From a virus (taxonomy: Duplodnaviria; Heunggongvirae; Uroviricota; Caudoviricetes): a stretch of DNA of 5,699 bases. Under the pieces are notes generated by a model, which did not search any database, was not told the DNA's origin, and saw only the letters and a program-made list of their open reading frames with translations. The first letter of the stretch is position 1, and every line of letters starts with the position of its first letter. The stretch lies in IMG/VR virus record IMGVR_UViG_2667527918_000008, one strand, 5' to 3'. Made by a program: the position numbers and the translations under genes. Positions 1-5,699 of this stretch are shown here, piece after piece.

Positions 1-228
1 CTAAGCAGGCGTTACAGCCTGGGGCTGTTGTTGCCCGGATCGCCAGAGAACACGATATCAGGGATTTCAGTGCCCAGTACTCCCACCGGAACGTATATAG
101 CATCCCCACAATTTTTCATTACGGGATGTTCAGAGCATTCATTACCGGGGTCATATTGCGCCCTGTCCGGGGTGCCGGATGCACATGTCTCTGGCGCAAT
201 GCCCGGGCTTTTTATTCGCACATCGTGA
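1..228 (+). CDS. Possible 3' end of an upstream gene running in from the window edge (tail-fibre-like C-terminus?); hypothetical
   Basis: Frame 1 is stop-free from position 1 to TGA at 226-228 (75 codons). The TGA overlaps a GAGG Shine-Dalgarno (227-230) placed 8 nt before the in-frame GTG at 239 of the next gene, a typical coupled-gene junction. The translation is Ser/Thr/Gly/Pro-rich with no motif I recognise. The opposite-strand ORF 12-221 is an equally long alternative. Confidence 0.25.
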   Translation, partial: LSRRYSLGLLLPGSPENTISGISVPSTPTGTYIASPQFFITGCSEHSLPGSYCALSGVPDAHVSGAMPGLFIRTS

Positions 229-238
229 GGAATGCACC

Positions 239-921
239 GTGGAAATTAAAAAAATCATTAATCCCCGTTATACCGAAAGTGGCGCAGTAGACTGTGACGT
301 TTTTTTTGACGACAGGGACCAGGCAGTCCCCTACACAGCCACCGCTGATGATGTCGCTCCGACGGGTCAGCAAATCTGGCAGGAACTGCAAAGCGGCAAA
401 TGGGGTGAGATAGCCCCATTCACTGTGACACCAGAAATGCTGGAAGCGGCCAGAGAGGCCAGACGTCAGGAAATTGAAGCATGGCGCGCAGAACAGGAGG
501 CGAAACCGCTCACGTTTGAATGGAACGGTCGTATCTGGAATGCTGGTCCCGATTCACTGGGCCGCCTGTCCCCGGTAGTCATGCTGGCAAAATCTGTCAC
601 AGCACAAACACATNNNNNNNNNNGCTGTTCACGTTTGAATGGAACGGTCGTATCTGGAATGCTGGTCCCGACTCACTGGGCCGCCTGTCCCCGGTAGTCA
701 TGCTGGCAAAATCTGTCACAGCACAAACACATATGGCGTGGAGCGATGCCGATAATCAGCAGGTGAAACTGTCGATGCCGGAACTGGAAGAACTGGCGGC
801 AGCAATGGTGCAGGCGCAGGTCGATCGCAACGATGAGATTTATCGCCGTCAGCGGGAGCTGAAGGAAGAGCTGAATAGTCTGAAGGATTTGAATTCGGTT
901 AGGAATTTTATCGTGGAATAA
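239..921 (+). CDS. Phage tail-fibre assembly / tail chaperone-like protein; reading frame interrupted by a scaffold gap (ORF-track pieces 179-697 and 520-921)
   Basis: The two ORF-track pieces encode the same peptide segment (TFEWNGRIWNAGPDSLGRLSPVVMLAKSVTAQTH) on either side of the N-run. Deleting 614-732 (119 nt) joins frame 2 at 613 to frame 1 at 733 and gives one continuous ORF of about 187 aa from GTG 239, or about 207 aa from ATG 179. GTG 239 has a GAGG SD at 227-230; ATG 179 and 185 are alternative starts. The C-terminal region (MAWSDADNQQVKLSMPELEELAAAMVQAQ...) resembles, from memory, DUF4376-type tail-fibre-assembly/chaperone proteins encoded downstream of tail-fibre genes. The functional call is unverified. 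Confidence 0.55.
511..613. repeat. Left copy of a 103-bp direct repeat flanking the N-gap
   Basis: 511-613 is identical to 630-732 except at one position (T at 553 versus C at 672), a synonymous GAT/GAC Asp codon in the respective coding frames. Sequence immediately upstream of the two copies differs (ccgct versus gctgtt). Confidence 0.9.
614..623. other. Assembly/scaffold gap (run of 10 N)
   Basis: Ten consecutive N characters. Confidence 0.95.
630..732. repeat. Right copy of the 103-bp direct repeat flanking the N-gap
   Basis: See the left copy: 102 of 103 positions identical, offset 119 nt. Confidence 0.9.
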
Positions 922-926
922 CAGAA

Positions 927-961
927 GCTGCGGCACGTCGTATGCAGGAACGTGCCGCGGT
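927..961. terminator. GC-rich hairpin in the tail-assembly/sitD intergenic region; candidate (possibly bidirectional) terminator
   Basis: GCGGCACGT (930-938) and ACGTGCCGC (950-958) are exact reverse complements, giving a 9-bp stem with an 11-nt loop, extendable with G-U pairs to 927-961. It lies 9 nt after the TAA stop at 919-921. The flanking U-tract is weak on both strands. Confidence 0.3.
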
Positions 962-1121
962 TGGCTGGTAAACTTTCGATAGTGCGAGTATTGAATGATT
1001 TCTAGGCGTTATCGATTTTACGTATTTTTTGCATGATAGAATTCGTACCTCCTCCCAACGACCTTCCATGGCTTTCCGGACTTCTGTAGGCTGGCGGACG
1101 ATGCTGTCCTCGGATGTTGTG

Positions 1122-1979
1122 CTAATTGGGTGATAACAGATCCTGTGTATGGGCGTTTCCCTTTGTGCGTGCGTTGATGCTGGTAACGGTAAACGTCATG
1201 ATGAACACGACCGCGAATAAGACGACAATCGTCGGAGCTGGTGCGCTGTCGATAAAAAAGGACAGCCAGACACCAGTCATTGACACTATTACCGATATGC
1301 CAGTCGCCAGTAGGAGCGCAATATGAAAGCGTTGTGTCAGGAGTACTGCAATGGCGCCAGGCGCAATGAGCAGAGAAATAGAGAGAATGATACCTACTGC
1401 TTTCAGCGTCGCCACAATGGTCAGGGAAACCATGCACAGCAGCCCATAATGCAGCCATCTCGTATGCAAACCGCTTACCTGCGCCTGTTGATAATCAAAG
1501 CTGAACAGCAAAAAATCCCGCCATTTTACGCTAATAACAAGTGTAACCAGCCCGGCAATAATCACCGTCTGGATTATGTCGCCGATGGTTATCCCGAGCA
1601 TGTCGCCGAAAAGAATATGGTCAAGATGTACGTCTGGTTTAATTGCAATATACAAGATCAGACCTGCGGCAAACATGCCAGAAAAAACAATCCCCATAAC
1701 TGTATCTTGCTTGATTCGGCTGTTGTCTTTCAGGTATCCCGTCGCCACCGCGCAGAATACTCCGGCGACGAATGCCCCTGTAGCCAGAGGTAACCCCAGA
1801 ATCCAGGTAAGCACGATGCCAGGAAAAACCGCATGACTCATCGCGTCACCCATCAGTGCCCAACCTTTCAGGACCAGAAAGACCGACAGCAGCGCACAGG
1901 GTATGGAAACTACCAGTGAAATCAGCAGTGCGTGACTCATAAAGGTGAACTGCAGTGGCTCCAGTAATAATGCCATCAT
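1122..1979 (-). CDS. sitD: Mn2+/Fe2+ ABC transporter permease SitD (ABC-3 family inner-membrane component)
   Basis: 285-aa highly hydrophobic multi-spanning protein, paralogous to the adjacent permease, at the fourth position of a binding-protein/ATPase/permease/permease operon. Its start overlaps the sitC stop (ATGA, 1976-1979). TAG stop at 1122-1124. Confidence 0.92.
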   Translation of the reverse strand: MMALLLEPLQFTFMSHALLISLVVSIPCALLSVFLVLKGWALMGDAMSHAVFPGIVLTWILGLPLATGAFVAGVFCAVATGYLKDNSRIKQDTVMGIVFSGMFAAGLILYIAIKPDVHLDHILFGDMLGITIGDIIQTVIIAGLVTLVISVKWRDFLLFSFDYQQAQVSGLHTRWLHYGLLCMVSLTIVATLKAVGIILSISLLIAPGAIAVLLTQRFHIALLLATGISVIVSMTGVWLSFFIDSAPAPTIVVLFAVVFIMTFTVTSINARTKGNAHTQDLLSPN

Positions 1980-2833
1980 GAGCGATCCTCCAGCGCTTTA
2001 TGCGCACGCCGACGATTTGCCAAAAGTCCATGGGTGGGCGCAAATACAAATGCTAAAAGAAACAGCAGTGTCTGCGCCACCACGATGATTCCACCTGTCG
2101 CGCCGTCCAGAAAGTAACTGACCCACGCGCCGAGGAAACTGGTTACACTGCCAATAGTTACAGCAATTATGAGCAGGCGGGGAAAACGATCGGTTAACAA
2201 CCATGCTGTTGCACCGGGAGTCACCACCAGACAGATCACCAGAAAGGCACCAACCGTTTGCAGCGCCGCAACGGTCGAAACCGACAGCAGGGTGAAGAAG
2301 AGGATTTTTAATCTGCCCGGATGTAATCCAATAGCACGGGCGTGATTCTCGTCGAAAAAGGTCACCATAAGATCTTTCCATTTGAAAAAAAGCACGATGA
2401 TCGAGAGAATGCCAATGATAGTGAGTTGCAGGATATCCGCCGGATCGATTGCCAGAATATTGCCCAGGACGATGGTCTGAATGTTCACGGATGTCGGGTT
2501 CAATGACACCATAAACAGCCCCAGGCCAAAAAAGGACGAGAAGATCAGGCCGATGATGGCATCTTCTTTTAAGCGGGTGCGTTGGTTAAGAAACAGCATG
2601 CTGCCCGCTGCCAGTCCGCCGGAAAAGAAGGCTCCCAGAGAAAACGGAAGCCCCAGCATATATGCCCCCGCAACACCCGGGACAATAGAGTGCGACAGCG
2701 CATCGCCAATCAGCGACCAGCCTTTTAGCATCAGATAGCATGACAGGAAAGCGCAGAGACCGCCGACCATTGCCGAGACCCACATCGCATTGAGCATATA
2801 TTCATAGCTGAAGGGTTCCAGTAGCACGTTCAT
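1976..2833 (-). CDS. sitC: Mn2+/Fe2+ ABC transporter permease SitC (ABC-3 family inner-membrane component)
   Basis: 285-aa hydrophobic membrane protein with clear similarity to the SitD ORF (shared LKGW..GDA.SH..PG core). Its start overlaps the sitB stop (ATGA, 2830-2833). Confidence 0.92.
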
Positions 2834-3657
2834 CTTGCTTCCCTCTGCACCGCTGACGGTCGATGTGCCACAAAAGGGCGTTCATCGTCAGTAATAATGC
2901 TTTCTTCCGAGCCGTTAAGTGTGACATGGCGCAGTACGCCGCTAAAAGCCAGCTCCAGGTTCTCGGCTGTAAAAGTGGTGTCTGTCGGCCCGCTTGCCAG
3001 GACGGTGCCTTTGACCATGACCGTATAATCGCAAAATGTCGTGACTGAGCCGAGATTGTGCGTTGAGACAAGCATCGTTTTGCCTTCCGCGCGTAACTCC
3101 CTCAACAGGCTGATGATTTTCGCTTCGGTTTTCACATCAACGCCGGTAAAAGGTTCATCCAGCAGGATCACATCACCCTGCTGTGCAATTGCTCTCGCCA
3201 GAAAGACGCGTTTCTTTTGTCCACCGGAAAGCTCGCCGATTTGACGATGGCGAAAATCCACCATATCGACACGTTCCAGCGCATCGGTGACAATCTGACG
3301 ATCCCTCTTTTTGGCTATACGCAACATACCCATATGCCCATAGCGGCCCATCATCACCACATCTTCCACCAGTACAGGAAATGACCAGTCAACCTCTTCT
3401 GACTGAGGGACGTAGGCAACCAGGTTTTTCTGTAGCGCCTGTCGCGTGGGAATACCCAGAACAGATATCTTTCCGCTGGTCAGACGCACAAATCCCATAA
3501 TCGCTTTAAACAACGTCGATTTTCCGGAACCGTTTACCCCAACCAGAGCGGCAATAGATCCACTTGGTACTGTGAAGGATGCATCGCGCAGTGCTGTGTG
3601 CCCGTTACGCCAGGTGACAGTAACATCATTAACGACAATGCCTGCAGATTGCATCAT
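2830..3657 (-). CDS. sitB: Mn2+/Fe2+ ABC transporter ATP-binding protein SitB
   Basis: 275 aa with Walker [13 protein letters not shown] signature LSGGQKKR, Walker B VILLDEP and an H-loop STHN. Its ATG (3655-3657) overlaps the sitA TAA (3657-3659) by one base. Confidence 0.95.
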
Positions 3658-4571
3658 TATTTCTCCCTTTTCCCGGCTTTAATTCCCTGTACCAGCGTAC
3701 TGGTAGTAACCTTAAGAAGGTCGATATACGTAGGTACCGGGCCGTTTTCTGTGCTCAGGGAATCGACATAGAGCACACCGCCGTAGTGTGCGCCGGTTTC
3801 ACGCGCAACCTGACGCGCTGGTTTATCGGAAATCGTACTCTCGCTAAAGACTGCCGGGATATGATTTTTCTTAACTATATCAACAACCTTACGTACCTGC
3901 TGCGGTGTTCCTTGTTGATCGGCATTAATCGGCCACAGATAAAGCTCTTTTAGCCCCAAATCGCGTGCGAGATAAGAAAAAGCCCCTTCACTGGTGACCA
4001 TCCATCGCTGATTCTCAGGGAGTTCCGTAATCTGCTTACGCAGGGGGGCAAGGGTTTGGGTAATCTTGGCTTTATAAGTATCGGCATTACGTTGGTAGGT
4101 TTGTGCATTTGCCGGATCGTATTTTATCAACGCATCACGAATATTATCGACGTAAATCAGAGCATTATCTGGCGACATCCATGCATGGGGATTAGGTTTG
4201 CCCTCATAGGGTCCTTCGGTGATCCCTACTGGCGTCACACCCGAAGAGACAATTACTTCTGGAACCCCATTGAGATGCTGGTAAAAGCGTTGGAACCACA
4301 ATTCCAGATTCATACCATTGGCGAGAATCAGTTGTGCCCCCTGCGCACGTTTAATATCGCCAGGGGTAGGCTGATACTCATGAATTTCTGCACCAGGCTT
4401 GGTTATGGATGAGACTTCTGCAGCATCTCCAGCCACGTTTTTGGCCATATCCGCGATGATGGTAAATGTTGTAATGACCTTGAATTTTTCAGTTGCACTT
4501 GCCTGAAATGCGATCGAGCAGGTGAGGGCGAGGCACCCCAAGAGCATGGTTACTTTTTTTATTGAGTGCAT
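3657..4571 (-). CDS. sitA: Mn2+/Fe2+ ABC transporter periplasmic substrate-binding protein SitA (cluster A-I metal-binding protein, PsaA/YfeA/MntC-like)
   Basis: 304 aa with an N-terminal signal peptide ([26 protein letters not shown]). Candidate metal-ligand positions are in the expected order for the family: His in EIHEYQPTP, His in NPHAWMSP, Glu in TSEGAFSY and Asp in YVDSLS. It is the first gene of the operon, with only a weak SD (AGG about 9 nt upstream). Confidence 0.93.
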
Positions 4572-4603
4572 AATTTAGTACCTATAGTGAGCAAAATTAG
4601 AAC

Positions 4604-4625
4604 AAACATAGCAACGGCTATGTTT
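4604..4625 (-). promoter_or_regulatory. Predicted MntR (Mn2+-responsive repressor) operator
   Basis: Perfect palindrome AAACATAGC-AACG-GCTATGTTT (9-bp arms, 4-bp spacer), 33-54 bp upstream of the sitA ATG and overlapping the predicted -10/+1. It matches the AACATAGC...GCTATGTT MntR box as I recall it from enterobacterial mntH/sitA promoters. Confidence 0.7.
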
Positions 4626-4652
4626 TATAGCATAACCTATACAAAATGAAAA
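4624..4652 (-). promoter_or_regulatory. Predicted sigma70 promoter of the sitABCD operon
   Basis: Read on the minus strand: -35 TTTTCA (4647-4652), a 17-nt spacer, then -10 TATAAA (4624-4629). This places the transcript start roughly 50 nt upstream of the sitA ATG. Prediction by eye only. Confidence 0.45.
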
Positions 4653-4666
4653 TAATTATCATTAAC
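4648..4666 (-). promoter_or_regulatory. Predicted Fur box (iron-responsive repressor site)
   Basis: Minus-strand GTTAATGATAATTATTTTC matches the 19-bp Fur consensus GATAATGATAATCATTATC at about 16 of 19 positions and overlaps the predicted -35. Confidence 0.65.
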
Positions 4667-4778
4667 AGCTTTGAGGCCTAAAACAGGGATTAGGTTGTTT
4701 CCTGCTGGCGACATGATATTGAGGAAAAAAGTAGAGCAGCTATTAGGCTTTGAAATGACTTTATGAGGAAAATTGTTG

Positions 4779-4862
4779 ATGGCAAAAATGGGGCAAAAAA
4801 GAGTGGGTTATCGTAGCTTATTGTTGTCGCTGATAATGTTTAACATATTGAAAAATAAATAA
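4779..4862 (+). CDS. Candidate small ORF (27 aa, MAKMGQKRVGYRSLLLSLIMFNILKNK); hypothetical small hydrophobic peptide
   Basis: ATG at 4779 preceded by GAGGA (4765-4769) with 9-nt spacing. Basic N-terminus followed by a hydrophobic stretch. No homology could be assessed; it sits in AT-rich DNA where chance ORFs are common. Confidence 0.15.
   Translation: MAKMGQKRVGYRSLLLSLIMFNILKNK
4781..4800. repeat. Pair of GG(G)GCAAA motifs spaced 11 bp, containing the 12-mer AAATGGGGCAAA (4786-4797)
   Basis: GGCAAAAATGGGGCAAAAAA. The 12-mer AAATGGGGCAAA recurs exactly at 4972-4983. Confidence 0.6.
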
Positions 4863-4971
4863 AATACTTATGAGTCAGATAGTTGTGATTTTTGCCCTTA
4901 CTTGTTCAGGTTGTATTGTTCTTTCTTTGTAATTTGTTGATTTTCTTGCATTATTTCAGTTCTCTGGTACT

Positions 4972-4994
4972 AAATGGGGCAAATTGGGGGCAAA
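4972..4994. repeat. Second pair of GGGGCAAA motifs spaced 11 bp (AAATGGGGCAAA then TTGGGGGCAAA), 9 bp from the integrase stop codon
   Basis: Exact 12-mer match to 4786-4797 followed by a degenerate copy one helical turn away, immediately 3' of the integrase gene. Candidate recombinase arm-type or accessory-protein binding sites. Confidence 0.6.
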
Positions 4995-5002
4995 CTTTGC
5001 AA

Positions 5003-5656
5003 CTACGATAACCGCGCATTCAACATGGCTATCTGTTCGTCGTTCATGTCATCAATCCACATACCGTAAATTTCATACACCATTTGCGCAGTTTCATGCC
5101 CCATCTGGCTGGCTATAAATGCCGGGTTCGCTCCTGCCGTCAACAGCCAGCAGGCAAAAGTATGTCGCGTATGGTACGGATTACGGCGGCGAATACCAGC
5201 ACGTTTTACTGCTGCATTCCATCTTGTACCCAAACTGCTTACCGAGTAATAAGGTTTCTGTTTTTCGTTACACACCCTGGGCATGAAAACAAAATGCAGT
5301 TTTTGTTTTTCAGTTCTGCCGTACTCCCGATGATAAAAAGTGATTTCGCTTTTGCGATGATGCCCGGTCAGTTTGTATTGCTCCTTCAGTGCTTCAAGAG
5401 CCGGCTGCAGTAATGCTACCGTCCGGATCCCGGCATTTGTTTTTGGGGGACCGAACATATCAAGTATCGTCAGGTTTCTTCTGACATTCACAATTCCCTT
5501 CTCGAAATCCACATCCTCCCACGCCAGAGCTGCCAGTTCCCCGTGACGAAGCCCGGAGTAAACGGCAAATTTCCACAAGTTTTGGCTCTGTCCTTTTTCA
5601 CTTTCCATTAATGCATTGAATTCTGTTTTAGATAACGGGTCAGGTAATGCTGCCAA
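5003..5656 (-). CDS. int: Tyrosine recombinase / phage integrase, C-terminal catalytic domain; the N-terminal part is either disrupted or lies beyond the window (possible pseudogene)
   Basis: The translation contains the conserved catalytic-domain elements GLRHGEL (box I Arg), HTRHTFA (box II) and MGHETAQMVYEIYG (C-terminal Tyr region). The frame meets an in-frame TAA at 5666-5668, so the only in-window start is a TTG directly after that stop. An intact integrase would be about 330-420 aa, not 217. Confidence 0.8.
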   Translation of the reverse strand: MAALPDPLSKTEFNALMESEKGQSQNLWKFAVYSGLRHGELAALAWEDVDFEKGIVNVRRNLTILDMFGPPKTNAGIRTVALLQPALEALKEQYKLTGHHRKSEITFYHREYGRTEKQKLHFVFMPRVCNEKQKPYYSVSSLGTRWNAAVKRAGIRRRNPYHTRHTFACWLLTAGANPAFIASQMGHETAQMVYEIYGMWIDDMNDEQIAMLNARLS

Positions 5657-5699
5657 CTTACTGATTTAGTGTATGATGGTGATTTTAAGGTGCTTGCGT

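Follow-up and report, generated by a model that had tools for sequence, protein, structure and literature searches.

Gene Content of the Window

The window analyzed here is the whole 5,699-nt stretch of the IMG/VR virus record IMGVR_UViG_2667527918_000008. At its left end lies a piece from inside tnpA, an accessory gene of an IS66-family (ISSfl3-like) element (1-60, plus strand), followed by the 3' end of a gene annotated as 'prophage tail fiber N-terminal domain' (61-228, plus strand), which aligns to the end of CDS 2900-4168 in the reference locus L001 (NZ_CM177021) and is truncated by the IS fragment at 60/61. Two parts of a gene for a protein with a DUF4376 domain come next, the 5' 435 nt (179-613, plus strand) and the 3' part with its stop codon at 919-921 (625-921, plus strand), and between them is the sole run of N found by a sequence scan of the window (10 N, 614-623). 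The stretches to the left (1-613) and right (624-5699) of this run are referred to as the left and right contigs.

An intact sitDCBA operon for an iron/manganese ABC transporter (1122-4571, minus strand) occupies most of the right contig and was identified from its ORFs, the RefSeq annotation of matching regions and Pfam. Beyond it are a remnant of a tyrosine recombinase (phage integrase) gene of 217 aa (5003-5656, minus strand; PF00589, 85.8 bits) and, at the right contig end, the terminal 57 nt of an IS1 copy (5643-5699, plus strand), recognized by the second occurrence of this sequence in L009 and other loci. The sequence GGTAATGCTGCC... at the right end of the window is what we take to be the IS1 inverted repeat. 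Within 5003-5699 the integrase remnant is interrupted by the IS1 end that starts at 5643.

Gap and Flanking Duplicate

The N run is flanked by the only long direct repeat that a repeat search detected in the window, with 510-613 and 629-732 matching over 104 nt at 99% (103/104) and a spacing of 119 nt. A match of this length with one mismatch is far beyond what chance is expected to produce. The homology extends in the same register to the first base after the gap, giving 109 nt (505-613 against 624-732) with four mismatches, at 505/624 (A/G), 507/626 (C/T), 509/628 (C/T) and 553/672 (T/C). The change at 553/672 is a synonymous GAT/GAC, and those at 505, 507 and 509 alter the translation from KPLTFEW on the left to (K)LFTFEW on the right. 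The offset of 119 is not divisible by 3 and the gene consequently shows up as two ORF pieces in different frames (179-697 and 520-921). The preliminary description of this DNA had likewise noted the two frame-shifted pieces, together with a 103-bp repeat from 511 at an offset of 119; the repeat, its offset, the GAT/GAC change and the PLTFEW/LFTFEW difference were all recovered, while the length is revised to 104 nt within a 109-nt overlap.

The DUF4376 Gene in Finished Genomes

Alignment to L001 placed window 61-613 at 4001-4553 and window 624-1200 at 4445-5021. The two contig ends thus share exactly 109 nt of one gene, which is 624 nt long, annotated as 'DUF4376 domain-containing protein' and adjoins sitD. 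By this mapping nothing is missing at 614-623 and the true distance across the gap is the 109-nt overlap. Collapsing the overlap in the window restored an intact ORF of 624 nt and 207 aa. The product of the collapsed gene in its sit-linked version is P0001, an identical 207-aa DUF4376 protein that occurs on 54 contigs and that NCBI assigns to Shigella flexneri.

The 207-aa protein matched DUF4376 (PF14301) with 57.9 bits against a Pfam cut-off of 25, this being its only Pfam match at E ≤ 0.001, and matched PHROG 1141 'tail fiber protein' with E = 1e-87. By these scores the gene belongs with the DUF4376 proteins of tail-fibre modules. It had earlier been labelled 'tail-assembly-like', which holds loosely in the sense of a tail-fibre protein (PHROG 1141, PF14301) but not in the sense of a tail-fibre assembly chaperone: these carry a Caudo_TAP domain (PF02413), of which the 207-aa protein has none. 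The Caudo_TAP genes of the reference loci are separate and lie further upstream.

Window 61-4944 is matched at 99.6-99.8% by eight complete E. coli genomes whose ipaH content marks them as enteroinvasive. An exact look-up of the SitD protein returned 10 complete genomes, eight of which have a single DUF4376 gene in the same register (207 aa in seven, 205 aa in one); in the other two (L012 and L013) an IS66-family element adjoins sitD where the DUF4376 gene would be. All 14 sit-linked copies examined are single, uninterrupted genes, and the arrangement with both 109-nt copies and real sequence between them was absent from the approximately 46 copies examined and from 43-45 places in E. coli complete genomes. 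At one further locus, L002 (NZ_CP119441, E. coli O121 strain 201805972), a complete IS66-family element with tnpA, tnpB and tnpC lies at 4717-7296 between the DUF4376 gene and sitD, and this insertion changes the 3' end of the DUF4376 gene to give a product of 225 aa.

A Multi-Copy Tail-Fibre Module and Its Cargo

The 144-nt stretches on either side of the gap are present in 9 of 5426 E. coli complete genomes, at 2-7 places in each. At the other copies a tail-fibre N-terminal-domain gene is likewise followed by the DUF4376 gene and next by a cargo gene, and the cargo at the non-sit copies in the E. coli complete genomes is ipaHa, ipaHb, ipaHd or ipaH3/Hc. Six aligned E. coli loci (two sit-linked and four ipaH-linked) show no differences between about position 395 and collapsed position 735 (window 854), beyond which they diverge fully. 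Wherever a non-sit locus was annotated or scanned (L003-L007 and L019), the gene for an ipaH-family E3-ligase effector lies about 180 nt downstream of the DUF4376 gene on the opposite strand. This placement of ipaH indicates that sit and ipaH share one cargo slot after the module in related prophage remnants. The gene had been proposed to be a repeated phage gene with a block common to prophage paralogues, and its recurrence at 2-7 places per genome in nine enteroinvasive E. coli genomes bears this out; the comparison of copies and flanks that had been recommended gave ipaH genes as the other flanks.

This organization is that of the known PAI sit of S. flexneri and EIEC and of the chromosomal ipaH islands on lambdoid prophage remnants, in which sitABCD or ipaH likewise directly follows a tail-fibre module within IS-riddled remnants. 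To the PAI sit the window adds only the usual island content plus an assembly join, and the island itself is nothing new.

Origin of the Right Contig

The right contig, including its first five bases, is identical over 5076 of 5076 nt to the sit-linked locus of L009 (CP026788) and L016 (CP044155). We refer to the sit-linked copy of the DUF4376 gene as copy B and to a second, ipaH-linked paralogue described below as copy A. The right contig has no mismatches to B and more than 900 in 1500 to A. Its start, 624-732 (plus strand), has the alleles G, T, T and C at the four variable sites and matches L009, L016 and L031 at their sit-linked copy with 100% identity; sitDCBA is the cargo that follows this copy. 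The integrase remnant and IS1 of the window's right end also occur in six of the eight SitD-selected genomes that have the DUF4376 gene. Past about 4944 the EIEC genomes have uspF-ompN instead, and the sitA-side flank differs between the Shigella type and EIEC.

Origin of the Left Contig

Window 1-60 shares all 60 nt (100% identity) with tnpA of IS66-like elements carried by EIEC invasion plasmids (H71-H73) and falls within CDS 2179-2853 of L047. It is an internal piece of tnpA with no IS terminus and is fused directly to the last 168 nt of the tail-fibre gene. A copy matching the left contig was sought with a degenerate pattern in species-representative genomes and IMG/VR. Three loci, L019 (S. 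flexneri SFBU1023, CP182556), L020 (CP178302) and L037 (IMGVR_UViG_2869936548_000004), have both the IS-fragment junction and the alleles of the left contig, and window 1-613 is identical to each of them at 612 of 613 positions, IS junction included, with the sole difference at 183. The stretch at 179-613 is thus the A version of the DUF4376 gene, and the last 109 nt of the left contig (505-613, plus strand) have the alleles A505, C507, C509 and T553. Copy A continues into another 3' end (...EMKEELSGLDDLASIRAFDVE), followed by a 571-aa gene with NEL and LRR_TTSS domains, an IpaH effector, as scanned in L019.

Compared with the sit-linked locus of L009, the left contig differs at 183, 505, 507, 509 and 553, and its first 60 nt are without any match. 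Over its whole length it has a single mismatch to A and 49-53 to B. The 60/61 IS junction was found upstream of none of the 14 sit-linked copies, and all four copies that bear it have a non-sit 3' end and flank, the flanking gene being ipaH in the one scanned (L019). No E. coli complete genome was found to contain window 1-613 contiguously. The fusion of IS fragment and tail-fibre gene is a deletion or recombination scar conserved in four genomes.

Position 183 of the window is A, which encodes His at residue 2 of the DUF4376 protein, and is T in the three A references compared base by base. The A at this position is shared by EIEC copies and by P0001, the protein of S. flexneri copies that combine a sit-type 3' end with the KLF variant, and may represent either a strain SNP or a single-SNP bubble that was popped. 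Among the fetched Shigella reference loci covering the site, both A and B copies have T (Leu), except for L036, which has a sit-type flank and A. Position 183 was dropped as a marker of A against B since the A and B references do not differ there.

Comparison of Copies A and B

Copy A lies 16.7 kb downstream of copy B in the same orientation in CP182556, CP178302, UViG_2869936548_000004 and UViG_2526164621_000008. The two copies were compared base by base in three genomes, one of which (L031 for B and L037 for A, on one IMG/VR contig) has the window's B alleles. In this genome A and B differ over positions 61-735 only at 505, 507, 509 and 553, the very four sites at which the two 'repeat copies' in the window disagree, and in the other two genomes A and B are identical. 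Upstream of position 61 the two copies differ at 345 of 461 positions.

The sit-linked copy has G, T, T and C at the four sites in L009, L016 and L031 and the 'A' alleles (A, C, C, T) in CP182555, CP182556 and CP178302 (L008, L018 and L021). The four sites alone were dropped as a copy marker because some strains have the same alleles at the sit-linked copy; it is the IS junction, and not these sites, that assigns a copy. The identity of A and B at the four sites in some strains appears to reflect gene conversion between the copies.

The suggestion that the apparent gene might be a chimera of two paralogues is borne out by these comparisons, with 1-613 matching A at 612/613, 624-5699 matching B at 5076/5076, and A and B differing at the same four sites. 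The scaffold is a chimera of the left half of A and the right half of B, and the gene is neither duplicated nor frameshifted. By the coordinates of SFBU1023, simple arithmetic places the left contig about 11 kb past the right end of the window.

Assembly Geometry

Small de Bruijn graphs were built from L009 (for B), L037 (for A) and one IS66 copy at k = 61, and also at k = 55 and k = 77. At k = 61 the unitig containing the A junction begins at window position 1, 60 nt ahead of the first unique base. A bubble arises from the four variant sites; its arms, at 445-613, hold 109 k-mers each, and the B arm opens with a k-mer whose last base is collapsed position 505, equivalent to window 624. The simulation at k = 61 therefore reproduces where the window begins, where it breaks off (613) and resumes (624), and how long the duplicate is (109 nt); none of this was recovered at k = 55 or k = 77. 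In these terms 505-613 is the A arm of the bubble at the left contig end and 624-732 is the B arm at the right contig start. The predicted right end at k = 61 was 5702 compared to an actual 5699, and the shortfall of 3 nt fits only if another IS1 copy in the genome has a TCA flank; no such IS1 copy was present among the fetched loci.

Velvet prints a later node minus its k-1 prefix, writes gaps of less than 10 bp as 10 N and has a default bubble limit of 100, which is below 109. The scaffold appears to have been made by a Velvet-like assembler. Like other unmerged overlaps and unpopped de Bruijn bubbles of this style, with their 10-N gap, the window has a minimal N run with both sides falling on the same reference coordinates, ends that lie k-1 = 60 nt from the nearest distinguishing bases, and a duplicate whose length is the number of k-mers in the bubble. 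It differs from the usual error bubble, in which the arms are variants of one locus: here they are two true paralogues 16.7 kb apart, so that the join is also a mis-join.

Interpretation of the Join

The duplicate in the window is very likely an assembly artefact in which the contig ends of two near-identical Shigella prophage gene copies were printed in succession. Since NCBI names the matching proteins as Shigella flexneri, the window would be a short-read scaffold of S. flexneri or a very close relative, consisting of two contigs with a minimal 10-N join. Such a genome would contain several near-identical tail-fibre modules (a tail-fibre gene followed by the 207-aa DUF4376 gene), each with different cargo, and the source presumably has the same A/B arrangement as the references: copy B followed by sitABCD and, 16.7 kb on, copy A with the IS66-family fragment at its left and ipaH at its right. 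At k = 61 the four clustered sites would give the bubble of 109 k-mers and the assembler would have left its arms unmerged, its output being the A-side path (1-613, to 60 nt beyond the last A-specific base), 10 N, and then the B arm and everything onward (624-5699). What looks like a direct repeat is one 109-nt segment of a single gene that was written out from both A and B, and the frameshift and the split gene are themselves artefacts. A contig join across a repeated phage gene had been put forward in the preliminary description, and the single copy in finished genomes, the 109-nt overlap and the k = 61 geometry all agree with it. The same description had cautioned that linkage of 1-613 to sit was unproven, rightly so given the distribution of the IS junction (0/14 sit-linked copies; 4/4 with a non-sit flank), and the linkage is very probably false.

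It is unlikely that the window instead represents one physical locus with a truly sit-linked left flank, the four mismatches being consensus noise from the reads of other paralogues or the product of a mixed culture. The A alleles at 505-553 of the sit-linked copy in CP182555, CP182556 and CP178302 mean that both allele sets are possible there across strains, and all three protein variants are found in public data. The IS66-family fragment at 1-60, however, is upstream of no sit-linked copy and in every case upstream of a non-sit 3' end, and the divergence to the left of 61 leaves no homology through which gene conversion could move the junction.

A real junction of A-left with B-right, formed when RecA-type recombination between 675-nt direct repeats either duplicated the 16.7-kb sit segment in tandem or excised a circle, with only the overlap left unmerged, is very unlikely. 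A duplication or circle arising between B and the downstream A should show A-left followed by B-right, as the window does, and a review (PMC7545054, citing Fisher et al., 2009) describes the sit island as unstable via homologous recombination. Against this, one recombinant junction would hold one allele set over 505-553 and the scaffold holds both; both arms would be expected in any case from the parental A and B copies. The order itself depends on a 10-N scaffold link within a repeat, the weakest kind of evidence, and the junction was unseen in finished genomes, both among the 14 sit-linked copies and as a contiguous 1-613 in E. coli complete genomes. We likewise give little credence to a subpopulation of cells in which the 16.7-kb sitABCD segment between the 675-nt repeats was amplified in tandem through RecA or excised as a circle; if it were true, these repeats would be direct candidates for the sequences on which the reported sit-island instability acts.

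The genuine tandem duplication that had been named as the alternative, here of about 119 nt within the gene with about 10 unresolved bases between copies, is the literal reading of the sequence with nothing else in its favor and is extremely unlikely, as the finished sit-linked (14/14) and paralogue copies examined are all single and uninterrupted, the inter-copy differences are exactly those between paralogues A and B, the length and end points are set by k-mer geometry, and the N run is of the conventional minimal length.

Consequences for Annotation and Repeats Around sit

The preferred reading, an assembly artefact joining two paralogues, makes the window a standard gap-flanking duplicate with a repeat-induced mis-join in the well-known sit/ipaH prophage-remnant islands of Shigella, with nothing new in it. 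Its main value is for quality control: the split 'tail' gene and the IS66 fragment beside sit should be neither annotated nor interpreted. In many S. flexneri draft assemblies there are 'partial' proteins of the same cluster cut at contig ends, and short-read assemblies of Shigella repeatedly break into contigs at the DUF4376 gene. Drafts of this kind give unreliable calls of synteny and copy number for the ipaH and sit islands where this gene is concerned.

The only point to carry forward concerns the nearly identical direct repeats of about 675 nt around sit, on which the deletions by homologous recombination that have been reported for this island could plausibly act. These repeats, which bracket sitABCD, comprise the tail-fibre 3' end and most of the DUF4376 gene (window 61-854, collapsed 61-735). 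Identity between the two repeats is 99.4-100% in the three genomes with a base-by-base comparison, and their spacing is 16.7 kb in four (L018/L019, L021/L020, L031/L037 and L024/L044).
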